A stretch of DNA of 56,064 nucleotides, the filler included, from Platydemus manokwari (lineage: Eukaryota), in assembly GCA_037951405.1 (NCBI GenBank). It is 5 parts of 5 records of this genome, joined end to end, with 100 filler letters (N's around TTAATTAATTAA, not from the genome) between each part and the next. Parts side by side here need not be neighbours in the genome. Positions count along the whole stretch, not along the records: positions 9,032 to 19,797 come from JBBMOY011107331.1; 4 more parts are not named here. One strand, written 5' to 3'. Both the position numbers and the translations under genes were made by a program. Numbering within the stretch: the stretch's first letter is position 1; each line of letters begins with the position of its first letter. Below the pieces are notes generated by a model that ran no database searches, was not told the DNA's origin, and saw nothing but the letters and a program-made list of their open reading frames with translations. Below are positions 612 through 44,666 of the stretch, in pieces.

Positions 612-3275
612 CTATGGAATTATAAAATTATGCTTACTCTTATAATTTTATTTAATAATAAATCCAGCCACATTATTAATTGTTATTATACTTTTCCTTA
701 GTGGATTTATTTATTATAATTTTATTTTTTATAATCGCTTTGAAAATAATGCAATTTATTTCATAATGATAATTTAATAATTCAAAATTCCATAATCCGA
801 ATAACAATTCAAAAATAAAATTACATATACTGATTTGTTTAATCAAAAAAATTTTCTACATTGAATAAAAAGTAATTTGCAAAATAAAGATTGCAGTCAA
901 ATAAAAGTAAAGCCACATAAGATTGAAATGTTTATCACATAAATTCGTTATTCATTAATACCCACTTTCCAATTGGATTTGGATTGAAGCTTTTGGAGAG
1001 GCCATTTTAGGCTTTCATTAGAGGATTGGGTTTGAGATTGAGATCCTACCTTCTGGTAAACTGAATACTAAGATTGAGAGAATTGAGAAGTTGAAGTCTC
1101 TATTCTGGCTCTATAAGAGATTTGTTGGATGATTGATCTAATCAGCTAAGACCGCTTTGAATGGTAATCGATATTGCTTGAGTTTAGACGGTTAAGCCTA
1201 GAAACTAGAGATTAGATTTATTTGTGACTATTTTATTTTTATTTTTGTTTCTTTTGGGGCTTACCTCGGCATAAATACAGTGTCATTCAGTGATATAGAA
1301 CAATTATAGGAAAATCAGCAATTTTAACCACAATATGCGCAAAAGCACTTGGACTAATAATAGTATGCATAAATAAATCATATGGAGACAGAGAAAGACA
1401 GAATAGAAACCAAAAACAATGTAGTTTAAATTTAAAATACTGCTTTGAATAAATGCTGAAGCCAAATTATCTTCGTCACCGCCTTTAAATTCTAACATTG
1501 TAGTTCATAATCATTCTTATAATATTATCAAACTTTTCTAGATCCTTAGGTATAAAATTTAAATAGATTCGGTCAAATATTATATTAATTTGTGGTAAAA
1601 ATACATAAAGCTAAAATTAAAATTAACAATGAAATACTTTTCATTCATAAAATATTTTTCCTATAAAATGTCATCACACTTGACCTTGTTTATAAAGAAA
1701 CATAAAAATTCCTATTTTATAAGACTACTATTTCCTCTAAATAAATTGATAGATTCAATCATCAAACAAAAATGTTTATTTGGATCATGAGTCAAAACAT
1801 CAATGGCATTTTACAATTTGGATCTAACGAAACCCAAACACTTTTTAGAAGTGACTTGATTGACTTAGTTCATTATTTTTAAGAATCTTATTCAATAACT
1901 AGATTTCATTATCTACAGGAAAACTAGAAACAAATATTGTCAAAAATAAATAGTGAGCTATTAAAAAATCGAAATATTTTTAGCCATTGCTCACAAACCA
2001 AATATTGATTTAACAATTTCATTTTTCAAAAAATAATGTAATAAATCTGATAAGAATTAATAATTTTTCGAATCTTAACGAAAAATAAAAATACGTATTA
2101 GATGATAAATAAAAATTTACCTCGACATTCAATGGGTCATTGTCATATATAATATCTGTAATGCGTGAAAATTTGACTTTTGAAAATAAATATAACTACT
2201 GCCTATGTAAAGAGAAGCAGTCCTCTGTCTTAATTTCATTTTAATGAATTTTCGCGTATAGATTAATTTTATAATTACGTTTTGTGTAGATTTCTAAAAT
2301 TGTATCCAAAAATTTATTTTTATAAAAAATTTTTAATTGTGGATCAAAATTGAATGAATTAATTGTTCTTCATTACAATGGTTGAAAATGCCTAGGTTTA
2401 ATGGATTGATGAAGCACTTCGAATGCTTGAATAGCTGAATGATAAGTTAGGATTGGAGGGAACTACAAGACTTCCAATAAAACTTATAAATTACTGATCC
2501 GGCCACATCTATCTTCAGTTAAATATTAAGTAATTCATAAAATGCCAATTTTAACTTTATCTAACAATTATTCCTTTTAGGATGGTCATATTTAGGTTCT
2601 GGCTGCAAATTAAAAAGCAGTCAAGACATCTACAAATGTTAAATATGATAATAAACTATTTAAAATCTTAAGTTTTATATTTAAAATTTTTATCACTTTG
2701 AGGTTTTATTTTTTTCACTTCGAAATAGGGACATAACAGAAATGTTAAACCAAGTTCTTATTCTAATCACAGTTCTTATATTTGTAGTATTGGTGTCTAT
2801 ATGACTGTTTGCTTTGCAAACTAAATTTATTTTTAAATCAACTAGTTAAACTCCTGACATGTTTAATAATTTAATAACTCGTTCTCATTAAATAATTGTT
2901 AATTTAATTTAAATAAAAATGAACATAATCGATGTATTTGAATTCAAAAAATACGACTTCAAAGACTAGTGATTAGAATCGATTTAATTCATAATTGATA
3001 GTACATGTTTCAACTTAAAATTAATTTAAAAATAATGGGGCATAACAATTGACATTTATATTTTTCAGAATAAAGTTAAGTGGCAAAATATCGGTGAATT
3101 ATTCAAAACGAATCAAATCAGAATATCATACATTTTAAATTAAATACCACAATTATTTTAAAGTACTTTCACAACCACAGAACCACGTTGCATATTTATC
3201 CATAAAATACTAAATAATTGAATAAAACAACATTTACAAGGAGAATATATTTAAAAAATTTAAAATCACAAATTA

Positions 3276-3641
3276 TCAACTGGAAAATGTGTATAACATG
3301 TCATAAATAATTATCCAGATAACAACAAAGCTTGCAAATGCAGATAAAAATCCTTCTTTAAAAATATCTCCGTAACCACCAAATTCATCTTCGTCAATTT
3401 GTTGAAATACAGAACTATACAAATAAATAAATAAAAGAGATATACCAGCAAATAGAACAAGTCCTAGAAATCCTTTCAAAGGTATAAATCCCCATATAAG
3501 ACCTAATAAAACACCAATAATCTGTTTAAACCAATATATGACATCTAGGAATTCGTCTTTATCCTGCCATTGGGATTTTGTTGTTATTGCTTTTTTAAAA
3601 GTGTCTAATACGCTCGACTGCTTCTTTGGAATATTTTTCAT
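3276..3641 (-). CDS. RAB5IF: RAB5-interacting factor / C20orf24 (OPTI/RCAF1) small membrane protein
   Basis: WQDKDEFLDVIYWFKQIIGVLLGLIWGFIPLKGFLG...QIDEDEFGGYGDIFKEGFLSAFASFVVIWII is the C20orf24/Rab5ip signature. Intact 121-aa ORF. Confidence 0.93.
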   Translation of the reverse strand: MKNIPKKQSSVLDTFKKAITTKSQWQDKDEFLDVIYWFKQIIGVLLGLIWGFIPLKGFLGLVLFAGISLLFIYLYSSVFQQIDEDEFGGYGDIFKEGFLSAFASFVVIWIIIYDMLYTFSS

Positions 3642-4439
3642 CTAAAATAAATATTTTTTAATTTAATTTGAATATATTACAACTTAAATTATTCAAAATG
3701 ATAAACCAAATTAAACAAAAAATTGCATGTCTTTACATCGTTTCAAATCACAATTCAAATTTAATTCATTAAAAGAAAAATGTTATTAAATTCCAATATT
3801 TAAAATTAAATTTAAATCTAGTTAGATTTCAGGATTTAGTAATTGATTATTTTTATTTAAGAAAAAAAGTTTTACATAAATGACATTTTTATTTATTTAA
3901 TTAAATTAATTTTCAAATTATATACCAACCAAAGAATATTGTTTTCTAAACAAATAAAAAATAATCATAAACAATATACTTATAAATAAGCACAGGAAGT
4001 TTGAAAATATTAAATTCTTACATATTTTGATACTTTTTGAAAAATAAATGAAAACAATAAAAAGAACTTGTTCATTTATTTGGAAAATATCACAAAAATT
4101 CAAAAACTAAGAATACTTGATTCATAATAAGTTTAACTTTAATAATAATTTTGTACAATTGATGATGATTTGGTTATAATGAAATTGCAAACCAATAAAT
4201 CCTCTAGTTATTACACAATGTTGCCGAGACCAGACCCCATCGCAGATAGAAACAACAATTAATATAAAAAGTTTTAAAAACCTAAAAATAGGTATGTAAA
4301 TAATATTATTATTAATAAAATATCATATTAGAAGGATGAAAAAATAATTAGAATAAATAAATTACAAAAATAGAAATTAAACAGAGACAGAAAAATAAGT
4401 ATCATAAATATGCCTAAAAATTGACCTAAGACTATCTGA

Positions 4440-7400
4440 ACATATTAGAGGACATGTCTGACATCGAGGAACTACAAACCACCACAACCCAATTGGAATC
4501 GCTTGCTCTAATCTAACGTCTAAATTTCTCGTTGGGATATAAATTTGAATTCTCTTCTGGACGAAATCCGAACTAACTTAGACACCTACCTGATTGGAAA
4601 AATTTCTCTTTACAAAAACTTTTGACTCTGTCATTCGTAACCATCAACAAACTCATTCTTAGCATCAAGTGGTCTCGTGGACCAACAAAGCTCATTAAGC
4701 TAAAACATTCCCTCAACACAACTATAGTTATCCAGATAACATCAAGTCACCATCAACCTTGAACGAACTCCTTAAGAATGTGGCCCAAATTCCGGAAATT
4801 TGAAATGACATCTGCACCTGCGAAGCATATCAAGTTGATGTAAAGCAGTCCAAATGTGCCAAAAAACCACCCCAAACATATAGGTATCGAATATTGAACG
4901 AACTCCTCTCCCTATTGATCTGCAAATGTGATCAATGTATAAAAACTACGTGAAAACGTGTTATGGCATAACAACTAGTAACTCTTCAAACTGAGTTCAG
5001 AACAGGTTTTCATGCAGTCCAAAATATCAAATGTTACTGCGGTCTGTGCGGAAACTCTTTCAACAGGTGATTAAATTGCACTGCCTTTATATAAGCTACT
5101 ATATACCTATAATTGAAAGCAACACAAAAATAAAATATCTCAGATTCCAGCCAAAAATCAATGACAGAGCACACTAGTTCTGATACATCTGGGGTAGTAG
5201 TAAGGATAGTCAGCAAATGATGCATCCCTGAAAAAAACTTTCGATTATTTGATGTTTGCTATTTTCACTACTAAAATGACATTTTTTTAATAAAAAAAAC
5301 AATAAATATATTTGATATTGATAAAAAAATTGGAATAATTAAGAAAAATTATTTAAAATCAAAATTTAGTAAAATGCTTTTTCCAGACCACCAATAAGCC
5401 CAAACTCAGCTTAACACAGTATCTATAACCAATCAATTTAACTATGCATCAGGTTCGAGACTTGCAGACTAAGAATAGCAAACTGATGTCATACCAACTT
5501 TCACTCCGAAAAACCTCGAACAAAACCCCAGTCATACTCCCACTCCATACCAAGTTGCCTCTCTGGACAATATCGACATCGATGATGTGACTCTTACTCA
5601 AACTAAAACAGATACTCCTTACAGCGAAGAAGAATCTAACAATGAATTTCAACCAAACAGATCAACCTACAGTATCCAAATCTATCACATTCTTCTTAAC
5701 CAATTCTTGTCTAAAGTAAGTGGCGGGTTTCCAACAACCTTATAATTCAAGACTATAATCGATGATAGTAATGCTCAGTACAACTTATGTCCAAAGATCT
5801 ATCGTTTCTCATTTTCCAACACATCAATTGTTCGAATTACTTCCTACAAAATCACAGTGTCAGTCTGAAATTTGAATTTGCTGTCCAATGTTATTGAGGT
5901 TTCATCACCTCTTTTAATCTGAATTTGAACCAGCACAAGACTGAAAACCTACAAACAAACCAAGTTCAGTTACGTACCAGCATTCCTTTAACCAACCAAG
6001 ATGCTCAATCTCAATGACTATCAGGCCTAGCAACAGAAGCCTATCTCTTTTACAAAACTGTCCAATTTCAGTGACCTCATTTTCATCAAATCACAACGTA
6101 CAATCATCATCACCAACCAATATTTTGAAAATTTCTATCTCTCTTTTTCATCCACTGACAATCTCAGATATCGTAACTTCATGGCGTCTTATAGCTCTGA
6201 TGGACACATCAACCCTAATTTTTGCAACTACTCTGATCATACAAATCCCTAACTTAATCAAAGCTGGAAATTTTCTTTCTCCAAATCAAAAGGTAATGTT
6301 CGCCTATGATGTATGTGCCAAACATCATGTCTACTTATTCACCCAATCTATACACAAAATTCAACAGTACAAGAATGTGTTGCTCTGCTGAATAGATTTA
6401 AAGTTCTGGTTATTGGCATCACTAACATCTAAAAGTATTTGGGAGTTCCACTTGGTCTTCTAAAACTAACACGAGTGGGCCATATTGTTCAATTTATCAA
6501 ATCAGTCTATAAACCTTTGCAAAGTCTCGGCTTCACCATTTCTAAAAGTTTCAAGCTTACAGCATCTTCCTGCACTCAATAATCCTGTTCGACTTCATAA
6601 TTCAACAGATTGAAACAACTAAACTCGATTCTTGTGCTCTGATCATTAATGAAGACAACAAACCACCCTAATCCTTTGACAAGAATATCCGAGAAATGTC
6701 TCGTAAAATACTGAATCTGCAAAGCTCAAAATTTAGAAACAATTACTTTCTCTACTCTCCACGCAAACTAATTGGAATCGTCATAAATATCCCGCTCATG
6801 GAGTACTACATCCAGAGCATTGATTGTGCCTTTGGATTTCCAATAAGTTAAGAAAATCAATTTAGGTCATTTATTATAAAACACCTAACCAACCTGTCCA
6901 GCTCAGACTCAACGAATCCACAGATTTATCAAGTGTACTCCCTTGGATATCAAACCAAATTGATATGACTAAAATTCAAATCCCACAATTTGGTGGACCA
7001 AGACGTGATTTGTTACTAGAAAATTTAGAAAACTACAAATTGACAATTATTTTAAAAAATCACAATAATCAAATTCAACTGAGAGTCACCACTGCAGTGC
7101 CGAAAAAGACAAACTTTTTCTTAGAAGATAGTCTTGACAAACTCTCAGATATTCTATACGATTCAGTATACGTGTCGTTCTTCAATAATTGGTTCACAAT
7201 TAAAACACAAGGAAGGATGGTCCACAGTTTCTCCTTCTGATCTATAATAAAAGCCATTAAAGAACATACATCTGTCATCAGAAGTGACCTTTTACTGCTC
7301 AATCACACGCCGTACTTTATCAAAGCAAACAAATCAACATTGTGCAGTGTTAAATCACAGAACTGATGCTACTATGTTTATCCACCGCCCGGCTGCCGGG

Positions 7401-15858: not shown

Positions 15859-16500
15859 CAATGTTTTTTCAAACCGGTGGCGCGACCTACCAGTGTGTCA
15901 CGAAACATTTTTAGTGGTCTCAAGAAATTTTAAAGTTATAGTAAATAAATTATAAGAAAATATTCTTTAATACAATCTTTTATTTTATTGATATTATCAG
16001 ACAAAATAGTAAATTCTTTCTCAATGCAAATAACATTCAACAAGAGTATGTTCTAATTATTAAAAAAACATGAATCATCTCTCACTTAAAGCTCAAGATT
16101 TTTTAGTACTCTTCAATGATTTAAGCTTGAAATTAAATTTTTAACAAAAAACTTAAGCTCCGTTTGGCATAGTGTAAAAACAGAATATCTACTATTATAG
16201 AAACTAGCCATACTTTCTCTTCTTTCTTTTGTCTCTAACTACTTGTGTAAAAAATCATTTCGACACTTACTTACATTAGAAAAAATATCGATCAAATTTT
16301 AAAGATTTTGAATTAGTAATGAGACCAACCATCAAAAATTGATGTTTTATTCCAGAATATGCAAAATCGTTGTTATTATTAAATATATTTTAATTTTTTG
16401 ATGTTAAAAAAGTTTACTTTATTATTTTTATTTTAGTTCCTAGGGTCGCGAAAAGATTTGGACTCGTAAAGTGGGTCGCAACATAGTGTGAAGACCACCA
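15859..16500 (-). mobile_element. hAT (Charlie-like) non-autonomous element
   Basis: Ends caatgttttttcaaaccggtggcgcgacc ... gggtcgcg..gtgggtcgc..gtgtgaagaccacca, with the subterminal GGGTCGCG motifs typical of Charlie/URR1. Degenerate 8-bp TSD gtgtaaaa/gtataaac. A decayed C-terminal transposase-like remnant lies on the minus strand. Confidence 0.8.
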
Positions 16501-17843
16501 GTATAAACTAAACCCAAATCTTAAAAGAAATGCGGGACTCCGATGTATCAAACTAAAATGACTAATCACATAGAGGGGTGTAGGTGACAAGTTTTTTTAT
16601 TAATATTAACTGTTATCATTATTCCCATTGTTAATGTTTATTGGTATTATCACTATTATTATTGTTGATATTGGTGAGATATCACAGTCATTATTGATAT
16701 CAATTTCGATGGACTTACAATTAGTATTATCATAACAATTAATTATTACCTATTTATTATCAATGATAATATTAGAATTACCAATATTTTTATTAACTAT
16801 TAATTGTAAATTGACTTATTGTTATTCTTAGTTTGGATTTTATCATTCTCATTACTATTGTTATAAATATGTATTGATAATAGTATTATCATTATATATA
16901 TGAAATTAAGGATACCACCAATGAATTTCAGATTCATGAACTATATTAAAAAGGATTCATACTTCGGATTATACAAATAGATTTTTAATGATTGCCCTCT
17001 CTTGTAAAACATCAAACCCTTTGGTATATCTACGTTACTACGCATCTCTAATCTAGATCGGATAATCCTTTTACCGGTTTTCATAAGCATCTCATTAAGT
17101 ACACTCTAAACATCGAATAAGAATAACACGGATCTCAAAATTTGAACGAATAAAATATGCTCTTATAGGCGAAAATATTTGTTACAAGGAGCCATCAAAA
17201 TTTTATAATTTTGATACAAACATTATAGAAAAGTATACATATGTTGAGTGTTTCGAAAGTAACTCAAATTTTGCCAAAAATCCGACAATTAATAATCGTA
17301 ACAATATTAATGCGACATGTTTTAAGAATTTTTTTAAAATATTTAATTTTAAAATAGAATTTATTTACTTCACACATCTAAAAAACACTGAGATGGAAAT
17401 CATCTAAGACAAAACAGTTTGGACATTTGTGACTTAGAAGCTTCTAATAAGTTGATATGATGTCAATTAAAAAATGCATCGTGAATATCAGTTAAACATT
17501 CCATGTCTGTCTAGCATATTCCATGATTTTTCTGTTTGTAGATTTAATTCATAATATTTATTGAAGAAATAGATGAATATATTTAGTGAAAACGTACCTT
17601 TTTTGATTATTAAGCAATTAATTCTGATTATTTTGATATGAAATTTTTAATATTTTGTACCTTTGTAATATTAATAAACATTCTTCGGAATGTATTTTCA
17701 TATTTCTTACTCAGGAGATTGATAAAGAGCATTGTTAGTTAAATAATCGAACCTAATCTTAGAATCTGTTGATTACTATCGATATATGGAGGGTTAATAA
17801 GACTCTATAAAATAATTAATAAGTAAAATTTTTAGTTTATTAG

Positions 17844-18693
17844 GAACCCAGCAACTCAGGGAATACCGGCAAAAGATACAAAAACTTTAGATTTAGTCTC
17901 CCATACGGTTAGAAACATTACGAAAAATATAATATTAATTTTATTTACAGCAATGTGGAGGGAAAGAAAGGATAGACTGAACGAATTATTTCATAATCAT
18001 TGCAATATGGTGATAGGCCAGGAGGAAAGAAGTGACTCTGGCTATCATCATATGGAATTTTTTATTAATACAAAAACCAATAGGATGTTCACGGCAACCA
18101 AGAAGTTTTTTGGAATTCCCTATTGCTAATACTTTACTAATTCCCTATTGACAATACGGTAAGTGTAGTTGTGATTTAATAGTATTATTTAATCTCCACT
18201 GCCCTTACAGACAGAACTTCGAAAAGCTTGGCCCAAACAAATTTAAATACGATGGGGTTGTAATTGATGATTTACCTCTGCACAAGATGGAAGCAGAGGA
18301 AGTCATAAATATGACAGACATGTCATATTCTACGTCAATTACCGTTAAATATTCTACCGGTATCTTAGAAGAAGGTCAGTATAGGATAATATGTAGTAAC
18401 GACGTTGATAAAGTAAATTTAACCTATTTAATTAATGAAAATTAATACATATTACTCAGGTGATCAATCCATGCTGGCCTGAGTGCCGAAAGGCGGCGAT
18501 AAGAAGACGCTGCCATATAATATTATTTGACGATCGTCCATTATACAAAGAAACTAAGAAATCGGACAAACCAGTAGGGCGAATATCTAGATTTGTCCAA
18601 CAAGAGGAAGCCAAAACAATTTTTAGTGACAGTCGAACGAATAAAGTTATCCAACCTATTTATGTTTTAAAAGATACTACTGTCATTCCTTAA
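17844..18693 (+). pseudogene. rep: Intron-containing CRESS-DNA-virus-like Rep (HUH endonuclease + SF3 helicase), internally deleted
   Basis: Exons 17844-17907, 17951-18158, 18211-18412 and 18460-18693 join in phase across GT-AG introns of 43, 52 and 47 nt. Motif I RYKNFRFSLPY; motif II MVIGQEERSDSGYHHMEFFI; Walker B YDGVVIDDL; B' SITVKYS; motif C RIICSN; Arg finger AAIRRR. Motif III and Walker A are missing and there is a stop at ~18127. Confidence 0.85.
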
Positions 18694-18789
18694 AAATATA
18701 TGTATTAAATGTTATTGAGTTATCTTAGTTATTTTATGAGTAGTTAAAAAAGTATAAATAGAAGTGATTAGTTACCTTTTTATTCATTG

Positions 18790-19125
18790 ATGGATGTTAA
18801 AGTAAGCGATGGAGAAATCCTTGACTTCCTTACTAATAGCATTAACCATATTATCGATAATGGGAACTGGAAGTTCAATCATAATCATGACGTGTACATG
18901 GAAAGGGCAAAAATTAATAGATCAGATCCGAAATACGACTTCAAATATAAAGTCATGGCCCAAAATTCAATGTTGGTCATCAATATTTCTACTTTGACAA
19001 CAATACAACAATTAATCTCACCCAATCGTTATTCCAACCTCCAATCTCTAATTCTCTTGCAGTCAGAATCAGTACCCCGATTGCAACAACAATCCAATTC
19101 GCCAATTCTAGCAATTACACAGTAA
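18790..19125 (+). CDS. Orphan 111-aa ORF directly downstream of rep
   Basis: ATG at 18790, TATAAATA at 18753 and Inr-like TCATT at 18784. No recognisable domain; the C-terminus is Q/S/N-rich. Confidence 0.4.
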   Translation: MDVKVSDGEILDFLTNSINHIIDNGNWKFNHNHDVYMERAKINRSDPKYDFKYKVMAQNSMLVINISTLTTIQQLISPNRYSNLQSLILLQSESVPRLQQQSNSPILAITQ

Positions 19126-19797
19126 TTTCAATATAAACAATAACTTACAAATTAATGTGATTTTTACAAATTAATATTGGGCTTCGCTATTTATCTTTAT
19201 GAATTTGACATGTTATTACGCAGAATGATTATTTTGTGTCAATGAGTTTGCGGATTCTTTCTTTTAAATTTTAAACCGGAAGGGATGACAGCAGAAATCG
19301 ATATAGAATTAAGTAATGTAATTAAAGAAAGATAAAAATCGACAGTGAATACATGAACAAAATAATAAGGATAATAAAATAAAGTCAAAAATAATAAATA
19401 AATAGCAACTATAAGAATAGCAACAGCAAAATTAATAACAATAAGAATAAATATAATAATAATGATAATAATACCAGTAAAATTTATTTCAGTTTTATAG
19501 ACGGAGACTTTTGAATATATAATTACTTATATATATTATTACGATATATAATTATAAAAATTTTAGAATGAGCTTGTCCAATTGGTGGTTATGAGCTCAA
19601 TTGCTAGGAGGGAACTGATCCCCAACTAACCGAACAGAAGGATAAAAAAGAGAGGTGAAGGCTAGACTGGTCGACCGGCTTCTCAGAAGTTGGATTGAGT
19701 TGCATACTGAGTTCGATATGACTGGATTCATCATTGGTTCAAGTTCTATATTCCAATATTCTGTCCAGACTTGAGAGCTCTTGGATTTCCAGATTCT

Positions 19798-19897: not shown

Positions 19898-20008
19898 AAT
19901 ATTTTCTTATGAGTTATGCTTCTTCAAATATGTGCATGAAAATCGGACATTTCATATGGGACAACCTAATATTTTATTAACTTGATATCATATATTGATG
20001 ATATGAGT

Positions 20009-20332
20009 ATTATAAACAAATATATTAATGTTATAAACAAATATATTAATATTGTAAACAAATATATCAATATTATAAACAAATATATTAATATTGTAAA
20101 CAAATATATCAATATTGTAAACAAATATATTAATACTATAAGCAAATATATTGATATTATAAACAAATATATTAATATTATAAACAAATATATTTATATT
20201 ATAAACAAATACATCAATATTATAAACAAATATATGGATATTATAAATAAATATATTAATATTATAAACAAATATATCAATATTGTAAACAAATATACTA
20301 ATATTATAAATAAATATATTGATATTATAAAA
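20009..20332. repeat. 21-bp minisatellite, ~15 copies
   Basis: Consensus attataaacaaatatattaat. It produces the IINKYIN-repeat ORF and its antisense ORFs. Confidence 0.95.
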
Positions 20333-23300
20333 AATATGAGAAAAATTCATTTCTATACGAAATACTAGAACTCGTTACATATTTTTTATTTATAGTTACT
20401 ATTGATTACTTTTAATAATCAGAGGTGGTAATTAATGAAAATTATTTTAATATCATCAGATTTTTATTATTTACCACCGAATCACAAATAATATCAACAA
20501 TATCTTTATGTAATGCTTGTAAAACCACGCGTATCGGGTTTTGAATCACGTATATAATTATGAAGTCGATATATTATAAGAAATAAATTTCTTTGATCAT
20601 ATTTTGGTATGTTTTGTTCCAGAAGGTATTACAGCCAAATAAAGTGGCCTCTGGCAATATATCTTTATTTGGAAAAATAGTCTAGTCTTTTGCTACATTG
20701 ACCTCAGACTGATATCTTATGTCTTAATTAATTTTGCACAAATTAGAAATAAACATTTGACACCCACTTCGCGATCATTTTGGCGTTATGAAATTCATTA
20801 TACTTTCAAAATGATTAACAATTCTGAGTGATACATCTGGGTAATTTGCTTTTATAAATAGCGTTTATTTTATAGTTCTTGTAATACCTTGTTATTTATG
20901 GTTATTTTCTTTACTAAATTTACTTTTTTTTTAATCATTTCTTTCGCATCCCCCCTTGAACATTATACCTTAGTATAAAAGTCTGTATTATTTGTTATCT
21001 ATTCTCTTATTGATGATTGTTATTACCGCTTACTTGTTATAATATTATTTAACCATTATCTTTTCTAATGTTATTATATTTGAAGTGACTTTAGCTTACT
21101 TCTCAATTTTTGCAAAACATTTTCAAAATCAATAACTAAATATAAATAATTAAAACAAAAACTACTTCATAAATAATCATGCACAATGACATAGTAATCC
21201 CCTTGTGCACTCAATAATACAGTGCTTCATAATATTTTCTTTGTCCCTCAGTTTCACACAATTTGTTTTTGAAAGTTAAAATCGCATAAAAGAACTTGGT
21301 GTACATATTGAATTTCAACCTAATATTTTTTTAAAATACCCAACGAGTATCTTAAATAATCTTAAATCAACAAGTATTCTATCCTTAATCATAGATTAGA
21401 TAACATAATCAGTACTTTTGAATTTTTGTAAAATTTGTTCTATTTATATCTCTAACTGAAACATAAATTTAGCAAAAATTTCATTGTGAGCTTCTAATTA
21501 GATTGGATTTGTTCTCTTTACCAATTAAGTGAATTTTGTATTTTACATTGTTAATTTTTTGTTATTAGTTGAGAGTATTTCTATGTTGGAAATAGTTTTG
21601 TTTTGGTGACAATGTGCAATTTAAGAGTTTAATTAGTCGACACCTTAATCTTATGAAAGAAATCAACAAAATTGATTTTAGTGATTCACAAATAAGGAAT
21701 GAGATTTTCAATATTATTATTAAATTACATGCTTATAAAATGGGAGCTAAATTTAAAAGTTGAGTTTTAACTTAGATTAATGGAATTATAGTTTAAAATT
21801 TGATATTGATATTCTTTTATTGAAATTCTACAATAAATCTATATTTTAAGTTCCTCAGCATGACTATATTATTTGTTTACATATATCTATACCAGAGCTT
21901 TATTGCATTATGTTTAAACAATCTGACACTCACTTGTTTTTTCGTTTCTAATCTCAAATTATTTTCTGACATTGTTGTATATAATAAAGGACAAATGATA
22001 TTTAGATGTCTGTAAATATTGTACAAATCAGTCAATTTAGGTATGCTAGAATTAAGCTAATTGGAATCTATTAACTGACTCCGTGTATGTTTTGATTGTT
22101 GTAAAACCATTGCTTAGATTATTTAATTTGTAAATGTAAAACCATTTTCTTCAGCAAAATATATAAAGAATATAATAATTCCGTGAACATAACAATGTCA
22201 TAAACATAGATTTTATTTCCAAATTTTCTCGATAATTTTACCACAATCCTATCGGTTATTGATAATTAGTATCCTGACGGATACTTATTGGATTGTTATC
22301 AAACGTCACAAATTTTTTTGTAGAGTTCAATATAATTTACTTCCAAAAATGAGAGATTATCCAAATCTTGACTAAATTCTCCACATTTAAGGCATTGTAC
22401 ATTAATTTTTGTTATTCAGTTTTCTTTAAGACACCAAAATTAAATTGGAACAGATTTGAAATTTTTGACCACCAATTAGCAATTATATAATTAAGAGCAC
22501 GATACAAATGATGTCAAGTTAGGTTTTTAATTATTTTTTCAATTTGGTATTGCACACTTTAAGTAATTATTTTGTGGTTTGCATTTGCAATATTTTTATA
22601 TTGGAGAATAGAATTAAAAGTTAAATGGTTTAGAAATGCCCAATAATAGAGAAACTGATTCTAAAATATGTAAATATGCATTATGCACAACTACTGGATA
22701 TTGACTAAACCTTGATGCCACGAATGAGTCTGTCTCAATTTACCAATTAATGATTCATTTGGTGACTCAGTGGTGATCAAGGAGTCATTTTATTGACAAT
22801 AACGGAGAAAGATTTACTAATACATACAGAGATAACATTAATTTGCTTTCATTTAAATTGTCCCAGTTTTAATTCTCAAATTCGAAACTTAACAAAATAA
22901 TTTCCCCTCAAATAAGAAATTCTGACATGATATCACCACAAAAATATTGTTTGTAACTAGGAAAATATGAATTCGTTTATTTATTTGAGAATATAAATAA
23001 ACATGTACATGTAATTACACAATAATCATTTACATAAATTAGAGATGAAATTGTTTTACATAATGATTGAATGGGGGAAATCTAATTTATGATAAAAATC
23101 CATTAGATTATATCTACTGTTAAAACAAGGTTTATAAATATGATATTCGATTAGTATGGTAAAAATACTTATATTAACTTAATCCTTTTATCATTACACC
23201 AAAGCATCATTCCAGGACATTCACTTTACTCACACGGTTCAACATGAGAGGCTTATTTCATAAACATTGTTTTATTATTTCTACATTCTTATCAAAGTGT

Positions 23301-42691: not shown

Positions 42692-44666
42692 ATGCAAAAT
42701 ATATCAGTGGAACATAATAGAGAATCAAATGACACTTATAATGAAAAAATTAAGCTAAGTGAGACACGAAATAAATTCGAAACATCTACTGAGCACATTA
42801 TGTATTTAGTCAATAATAAAAATTAAGTGTCTAACGAAACTGAACAAATAATAACAAAAGAAAATATTGTAAATCAAACTATAAAAACTACGCAAAATAA
42901 AAGAATTATTGATTCTTACGAGACTAAATTGAAAGCCGTTGTAATGTATCAAGAAGGATTTACGTTGCACGAAATTGCGAATAAATTTAAAACGTCTTAC
43001 AATAATGTCTGGTATTAGGTCAATAATAAAAATAAAATATTAGAGAAATTTGTTAAAAGCAGAGATCAGATATCACCGGACGAATTAAAAAGATTAGAAA
43101 ACATTATAAATGGAAGCAGGCAAGTTTTGCAAAATGAGGAATTTAAGATTTTTGAAAGTAAATTGAAAGCCATTGAAATGTATCAACAAGGAATTGATCT
43201 TAAAGTTATAGCCGAAACGTTTAAAACGAGTTACCAGCAAATTTATTATTTTGTCCATAGAGAAAGTAAGATATTAGAAAACGCGTTTGATAAACGTAAT
43301 CAGTTATCACCAGAAGAAATAAAAAGGTTAGAGAATATTAAAAATGGAAACCAAGATGTCTTCCAAAAGAAACCACGTATTTCTGCAGAGACTAAATTGA
43401 AAGCCGTTGAAATGTATCAAGAGGGTATCTCATTGAAAGCGATTGAAGATATTTTGCAAGTCTCCTTCAACCACATTAGGTATTGTATCAATAATAAAAA
43501 TAAGATATTAGAAGAATTTGTTAAAAGCACAGATCAGATATCGTCGGACGAATTAAAAAGATTGGAAAACATTATAAATGGAAGCAGGCAAAACTTGCAA
43601 AATAAAAAAATTAAGATTTTTGAAAATAAACTGAAAGCCATTGAAATGTATCGAAATGGAATTGATGTTAAAGTTATAGCTGAAATGTTTCAAACAAGTT
43701 ACCAGCATATTTATTATTTAATCGATAGAGAAAGTAAGTTATCAGAAAAAGCCTTTAACAAATGTGATCAGATATCACCGGACGAAATGAAAAGGTTAGA
43801 AAATATTAAAAATGGAAAACAAAATGTCTTCCAAAAGAGAACACGTATTTCTGATGAGATTAAATTGAAAGCTATTGAGATGTATCAAGAAGGATTTACG
43901 TTGCACGAAATTGCGAATAAATTTGAAACGTCTTACAATAATGTCTGGTGTTGGGTCAATAATAAAAATAAGATTTTAGAAAATTTTGTTAAAAGCAGTG
44001 ATCAGATATCACTGGACGAAATGAAAAGGTTAGAAAATATTAAAAATGAAAACCAAGAAGTCTTCCAAAAGAAAACACCTATTTCTGACGAGTCTAAATT
44101 GAAAACTGTTGAAATGTATCAAAAGGGTATGTCAATGCCAGCAATTGCAGATAATTTTCAAACATCCCTCAACCACGTTTGTTATTGGGAACAAAATAGA
44201 AGTAAAATATTTGAAAATGTTTCAAAAAATAATGATCAGATCTCACTTGAAGAATTTAAAAGATTAGAAAATGTTTTAAATGGAAACAGGCGTGAGTTAC
44301 AAACGAAAAAGTGCAAAGTCTCCACAGATAATAAATTTAATTCCATTGAAATGGATAGAAAGGATTTCCAAGCAAAACCCTATCTGAAAAGCGTTGGTCA
44401 GACTGATTATAAATTATTGGAAAAAGACAAAGCACAATGATCAGATATTATTAAAGGATGGATCTGAAAGTTTAGATTTATCTGTAAATTTATTGAAAAA
44501 TGAAAGTGTATGGTTTGATGAAATGTTAGTAAAAAAGAAAAATGAAACAAAAGAAGATTTTAATAGAAAAAATACAAAGAGAAAAATAACTGACACTGAA
44601 AATACAAATGAATTCAAGAAAATACGACATGAATTTCCTATAAATATAAAATTGGAAGAAATGTAA
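42692..44666 (+). pseudogene. Tandem helix-turn-helix (CENP-B N/psq/Brinker-like) repeat protein, 78-aa period
   Basis: One reading frame from ATG 42692 through ORFs 42827-43018 and 43127-44440, with in-frame TAA 42824 and TAG 43016 and a frame change after ~44355. Repeat consensus RIS.E.KLKAIEMYQEG.....IA..F.TS...V.Y.V....KI. KLK codons fall at 42926, 43160, 43394, 43628, 43862, 44096 and 44333. Confidence 0.75.

Follow-up and report, generated by a model that had tools for sequence, protein, structure and literature searches.

A deleted CRESS-type Rep pseudogene with three predicted introns in Platydemus manokwari and its likely kinship to the PEVE/PIVE lineage

CRESS-type Rep proteins, which combine an HUH nuclease with an SF3 helicase, nick the replication origin through the tyrosine of motif III and unwind DNA as an SF3 hexamer; in HUH enzymes nicking needs this tyrosine, and in SF3 enzymes ATP binding needs the Walker A motif. 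Spliced Reps are known in mastreviruses, genomoviruses and porcine circoviruses, and a second segment with a parvovirus NS1-like helicase is a feature of the PEVE/PIVE lineage. In Zhao 2019 (10.1101/687855), introns of CRESS Reps appear as rare, inherited events, with one rep site common to gemini- and genomoviruses and a separate one in circoviruses. Craig 2023 (PMC10288648) describes Replitrons as lacking a helicase, Helitrons as combining a Y2 nuclease with an SF1B helicase and Replitron-1 as having two introns, and summarises a proposed origin of parvoviruses from CRESS viruses. According to Liu 2011 (PMC3198968), PEVE was not found integrated, while the integrated PIVE of Schmidtea is its closest relative; such elements are drawn there with terminal inverted repeats, and Fig. 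S7 lists the PEVE large-segment protein beside gemini- and circovirus Reps. The PEVE/PIVE lineage is already known; shifting introns and a capsid were not found in the literature searched, which yielded no published report of either in PEVE-like elements, and the original PEVE paper (Rebrikov 2002) may describe splicing.

We analysed a stretch of 56,064 nucleotides, filler included, made up of five joined parts of the Platydemus manokwari assembly GCA_037951405.1 (hereafter the window), in which a rep locus lies within the part from JBBMOY011107331.1. By its genes the window comes from an AT-rich animal. A sequence-only reading had described the locus as a CRESS-type rep gene of four exons with three host-sized introns. 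We consider it quite probable that the locus is what remains, as an endogenous fossil, of a linear PEVE-like DNA virus with a rep predicted to have been spliced by the host.

Exons, introns and lesions of the rep locus

The features of the locus are listed below; residue numbers refer to the intact relative P0002, which has no introns at the three sites and to which the exons match collinearly.

17793..17843, + strand: candidate further intron, 51 nt, GT...AG, 5' of exon 1, read from the sequence only; no relative aligns upstream
17844..17907, + strand: exon 1, RCR motif I; P0002 5-15, 6/11 identical
17908..17950, + strand: predicted intron 1, 43 nt, GT...AG, phase 1, 16% GC; rank 1/23
17951..18158, + strand: exon 2, HUH motif II region (P0002 22-73), followed by the deletion junction, which contains an in-frame stop, and by about nine codons that precede Walker B in relatives
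18114..18157, + strand: deletion junction, an imperfect 19-nt direct repeat (18114-18132 and 18139-18157, 89%) around the TAA at 18127-18129, found by repeat search; a contig of DNA run X1 spans it without difference
18159..18210, + strand: predicted intron 2, 52 nt, GT...AG, phase 2; rank 1/20; P0001 and P0002 continuous across the site
18211..18412, + strand: exon 3, SF3 Walker B, B' and motif C; 60% identity to P0001 (E 7e-20), 40/65 identical to P0002 (208-272)
18413..18459, + strand: predicted intron 3, 47 nt, GT...AG, phase 0, 17% GC; rank 1/43
18460..18693, + strand: exon 4, arginine finger and C-terminal tail up to the stop; P0002 274-290, 18/35 identical to P0001, profile match E 2e-8

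For each intron every nearby GT-AG pair was enumerated, the flanks were translated with an X at the joint, and the product was scored against relatives. All three introns of the sequence-only reading score highest among their nearby pairs, and their phases agree with the exon frames. The lead is narrow for intron 2 (166.4 vs 164.1, the runner-up containing a stop) and for intron 3 (245.8 vs 242.2). A reading of the 3' end of intron 2 as coding, raised because the tblastn alignment extends into it, was set aside, as the spliced reading ranks first, narrowly; an acceptor candidate at 17714 gave no clean exon on inspection and was likewise rejected. The last nine or so codons of exon 2 match relatives weakly. 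Intron 2 has 33% GC and the exons 35-42%. The joined exons contain one stop in 233 codons, where shuffles average 17.2 and none of 1000 has one or fewer. Splicing out introns of 45, 58, 46 and 52 nt leaves a single open frame in a neighbouring kinase gene, and three candidate introns of 39-61 nt are seen in a gene with a CAP-Gly domain (we take the two genes to be KSR-like and DCTN1, respectively), which bears out the description of the rep introns as host-sized. Screens based on open reading frames do miss the three-intron Rep, as had been predicted.

The joined exons do not, however, form an open gene: exon 2 is interrupted in frame by a TAA (18127-18129) and about 125 codons are absent. When every six-frame fragment of the window was compared with a profile of 22 relatives (356 positions), three fragments matched, at positions 15-71 (E 9e-14), 199-273 (E 2e-27) and 268-328 (E 2e-8), and positions 72-198 found no match anywhere in it; the relatives were collected via exon 3, so that the exon 3 match is circular, while those of exons 2 and 4 are independent. 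The missing part corresponds to about P0002 74-198 and includes motif III (Y88), the helical oligomerisation domain and Walker A (184-191). Y88 and the Walker A residues G184, G189, K190 and T191 are nearly invariant in relatives (Y88 among 74 of them), and both motifs are absent from the window. No in-frame ATG was found in exon 1, and no start codon was found. The rep copy in the window is a deleted pseudogene and is dead: lacking the catalytic tyrosine and Walker A, it is capable of neither nicking nor ATP binding, and it most likely has no function.

In run X1, a single 2756-nt contig covers 16825-19406 without difference, X1 possibly being the window's own source and not independent of it. 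Depth over the exons is 13.0 in three bins and 16.9, 21.1 and 14.6 in the others, a single contig corresponding to 13; the bins at 21.1 and 14.6 are those that cover exon 3 and intron 3. Neither X1 nor the window yielded another complete copy with at least 80% identity, a search that copies below 80%, filtered copies and missed variants would escape. From this contig and its depth it follows that the lesions are in the DNA, with no second full copy seen at that identity. Terminal inverted repeats were not found at the locus, where the best flank alignment scores 39 against a shuffle mean of 42.6 and is reached by 157 of 200 shuffles; an AT-rich inverted match (16632-16672 and 19446-19486) was rejected as a terminal repeat. 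A tblastx search with L001, a linear viral contig described below, found no capsid gene near rep in the window.

Several further elements were observed in the window. High-copy repeats flank the locus at 16300-16500, 17280-17420 and 19520-19790, with summed depths of 2,700 to 29,000 vs 13. Just 3' of rep, 18772-19125 holds a 117-aa open frame with no Pfam match, part of which is covered by about five diverged X1 contigs. An AT-rich minisatellite with a 21-nt unit in at least 15 copies occupies 19940-20420, and 43019-44440 contains a 473-aa frame with tandem helix-turn-helix repeats (PF13384, E 1e-22) and internal DNA repeats, possibly derived from a transposase.

Family assignment and the linear relative

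The assignment to the CRESS-type HUH+SF3 Rep family is confirmed by profile, Pfam and structure-model matches of relatives, and the motifs named in the sequence-only reading are present: RCR motifs I and II in exons 1 and 2, and Walker B, B', motif C and the arginine finger in exons 3 and 4. Searches with exon 3 led to P0001, P0002 and 375 representatives at E<=0.001. Exon 2 matches the family alignment in hhalign (96.6%, E 6e-10). The Pfam families proposed as a check agreed in part: exon 2 matches Viral_Rep (PF02407) at E 0.0016, which falls short of Pfam's cut-off, and 34 of 74 family members match it at E<=0.001, while PF00910 is not among the families matched by these 74. Exons 1, 3 and 4, each searched alone, have no Pfam match, and P0002 has only a weak one to IstB. 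A profile of the 74 relatives matches the PCV2 Rep 7LAR over positions 9-301 (E 7e-22), whereas P0002 alone finds nothing relevant in the PDB with phmmer. P0008 scores 0.98 to Cressdnaviricota Rep clusters. The predicted model of P0002 (pLDDT 94.5) resembles Reps of circoviruses, nanoviruses, vientovirus and AAV, and in this model the intact relative has the three-domain CRESS Rep fold. Plasmids gave no relatives (0 matches in 72,556), and of 135 pattern matches in prokaryote genomes one passed, a weak 43-codon piece; on these grounds a bacterial pCRESS plasmid Rep was rejected as the source.

A Rep phylogeny of 167 rows, comprising the window and those 166 of 179 profile-matching sequences that span the helicase part, places the window in a group of nine rows (SH-aLRT 93) together with P0009, P0002, P0005, P0004, P0008, P0001, P0019 and P0036, nested in a group of 14 (SH-aLRT 97). 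The tree comes from an IQ-TREE quick search with SH-aLRT as its one support measure and a midpoint root, and several of its rows are less than half filled; P0006, P0007 and any protein shorter than 110 aa had been excluded in advance, and nearest fragments such as P0010, P0016, P0024, P0048 and P0052 are therefore absent from it. All 27 rows from more distant IMG/VR contigs fall outside the 14-row group, and direct terminal repeats, a mark of circular assemblies, occur in 27 of 30 of those other IMG/VR contigs. In P0019 a piece of Rep helicase is joined to a PIF1-like piece, probably adjacent decayed elements.

Scans of viral contigs with exon 3, P0002, A5 and A6 returned no relative, and L002, L003, L006 and L038 are short, weak matches that were not used. 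The best viral contig, L001, is linear, 5699 nt long, with inverted ends of 243 nt at 98% and no direct terminal repeat. It encodes P0009 (272 aa), which is about 40-50% identical to the window over the matched stretches. The PEVE Rep in UniProt is also 272 aa, the length of the unspliced L001 frame, and lacks motif I. On the indirect evidence of equal Rep length, similar identity, inverted ends and a PEVE large segment of about 5.7 kb, L001 is taken to be a PEVE large segment. Through P0009, the Rep of the window likely belongs to the PEVE/PIVE lineage.

Predicted introns and a capsid candidate in relatives

The rep of L001 contains two in-phase candidate introns, 3542-3589 (48 nt) and 4028-4083 (56 nt). 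The latter ranks 1/24, and its removal brings motif I into the main frame; the 272-aa database Rep begins after it and hence lacks this motif. The related loci L004 and L005 each have a predicted intron just 5' of motif I (48 and 45 nt, respectively) and one of 40 nt in the arginine finger, of which the arginine-finger intron of L004 ranks 1/18 and the other three were read off unscored. In P0002 numbering the predicted sites fall at about 16, 207 and 273 in the window, at 28 in L001 and at 4 and 290 in L004/L005, so that six predicted sites lie in the conserved region and none is common to any two of the three lineages. P0024 ends exactly at the codon of intron 2 of the window (P0002 207), and the matches of P0008 and P0010 start where the main exon of L001 starts (28-29); these ends hint at intron sites common to other members.

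The Rep of L004 sits inside a non-LTR retroelement, with parts of it that bear Ulp1-protease and zf-RVT domains on either side (L004:1-1940 and 3566-4594), and that of L005 is frameshifted. For these reasons both look endogenous, and because they do, their introns could be chromosomal gains. The window holds a decayed retroelement akin to that around the L004 Rep at 5950-7240 (tblastx E 1e-8). Over 44 codons of exon 3 compared with L004, 32 of 53 differences lie at third positions, and this bias, together with the clean splice sites, suggests that the gene was still functional when the introns arose. Introns are also predicted in a relative for which integration is not known, so that chromosomal residence would not be needed to account for them. 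The three short predicted introns of the window and the differing ones of its relatives suggest that the lineage likely keeps gaining introns, which would conceal it from standard gene searches.

A 277-aa frame of L001 (207-1040, - strand) scores 0.95 to ssDNA-virus capsid clusters, with five of its ten best family matches in agreement. Both of its predicted models are poor (the single-sequence fold has pLDDT 33.8), and the viral-contig scan returns the frame itself alone, with no match in phages. It lies behind a basic, proline-rich frame of 626 aa (1290-3170, - strand) that is divergent from rep, and candidate introns are present near 1057-1154. L001 probably carries a capsid gene, and it may be that PEVE is a genuine virus whose transcript on the capsid side is spliced.

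Origin of the locus and comparison with known systems

The parent of the locus would have been a small virus built like L001, its ends inverted and its rep and capsid genes divergent, an architecture borrowed from this relative because the window has neither a capsid gene nor a terminal repeat. Its rep would have been transcribed in the nucleus, where the host spliceosome could excise the short AT-rich introns, and by analogy its Rep would have nicked the origin through the motif III tyrosine and unwound the DNA as an SF3 hexamer. Each lineage may have gained its introns independently, while the gene was functional. Part of the viral genome would have entered the germ line by end-joining repair, as judged from the sequence, with the deletion occurring before or after insertion; the short junction repeat would fit templated end-joining.

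Of the two origins offered by the sequence-only reading, the evidence favours a lineage that infects invertebrates and has several introns in rep, with the amendments that the closest viral relative with a complete genome is a linear contig with inverted ends that matches the known planarian element PEVE, rather than a circular CRESS genome, and that the present copy is a deleted pseudogene. The other, a long-term resident transposon or domesticated gene that gained introns, found no support, the locus having no tyrosine motif, Walker A, second full copy or termini. An active HUH transposon such as a Replitron or Helitron was likewise discarded, as many copies, common termini and an intact transposase were not found in X1 or the window. 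The transposon-like alternative would make the locus a defunct member of a PIVE-like family of integrating repeats whose introns were acquired while it resided in the chromosome. We regard this as unlikely, yet it has points in its favour: the integrated PIVE of Schmidtea is given as PEVE's closest relative in Liu 2011 (PMC3198968), L004 and L005 look endogenous and carry predicted introns, two bins over exon 3 have extra X1 depth, and copies of less than 80% identity or filtered out would escape detection. Against these stand the lack of a further full copy of at least 80% identity in X1 and the window, the missing inverted ends, with a flank alignment below the shuffle mean, and the predicted introns of L001, given that PEVE is reported as non-integrated.

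A host-expressed, domesticated Rep remnant, for example a DNA-binding or interfering antiviral fragment, would account for the canonical splice sites and the near-absence of stops from the exon codons, but a recent insertion accounts just as well for the open frames, the stop comes before the final introns, the locus has lost motif III and Walker A, and a start codon was not found; we hold this to be very improbable. Hardly credible at all is an assembly artefact, in which the deletion would be a collapse between short repeats or the whole stretch viral contamination. The imperfect 19-nt repeat at the junction might invite such a reading, but it is shorter than the 31-letter words with which contigs of the X1 type are built, the X1 contig crosses the region at depth 13 without differences (with the reservation that X1 is possibly the source of the window), and high-copy repeats flank the region it covers. 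A fossil of a PEVE-like linear DNA virus is our preferred reading.

The locus itself is dead, and its value lies in the lineage it exposes, where a viral rep has apparently gained introns lineage by lineage and a linear relative has a probable capsid. With six sites, none of them in common, across three lineages of one small clade, these viruses would offer a compact model of intron gain, a long-standing open question. Splicing would restore motif I to the PEVE Rep, and together with a capsid would turn the 'virus-like element' into a probable virus with a CRESS-type Rep and a linear genome, which, if true, bears on the proposed CRESS origin of parvoviruses. Splice-aware searches of invertebrate genomes should yield more members. 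We suggest tentatively, leaning slightly against it ourselves, a wider proposal in which PEVE is the sole sequenced complete member of an unclassified, capsid-encoding family of invertebrate viruses that combine a CRESS-type Rep with a linear, parvovirus-like genome, and whose rep introns are gained and lost so fast that no two lineages share sites, hiding the family from ORF-based discovery.

Compared with described systems, the locus shares with Replitrons and Helitrons an HUH nuclease in a eukaryotic chromosome and, with Replitron-1 as described in Craig 2023, the possession of introns (two in that element), but its family has an SF3 helicase, and neither the copy number nor the termini of a transposon were seen. 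Intact relatives have the HUH Y1 nuclease, oligomerisation domain and SF3 helicase of the Cressdnaviricota Reps of PCV2, nanoviruses and Vientovirus, whereas the locus is chromosomal and its nearest complete relative, L001, is linear rather than circular. Unlike the spliced Reps of gemini-/genomoviruses and circoviruses, the present lineages have differing predicted sites, six across three of them. PIVE of Schmidtea mediterranea (Repbase), compared here by its description, is likewise an integrated relative of PEVE, its third protein grouping with the PEVE large-segment Rep in Fig. S7 of Liu 2011, but it is described as numerous, while one copy is seen here. From PEVE itself the copy in the window differs in being chromosomal, deleted and interrupted by a stop, without inverted ends or a capsid gene and with its three predicted introns elsewhere; it resembles PEVE in an HUH+SF3 Rep that falls in the same small clade, if L001 is PEVE, in short predicted rep introns and in an animal host with introns of similar size.
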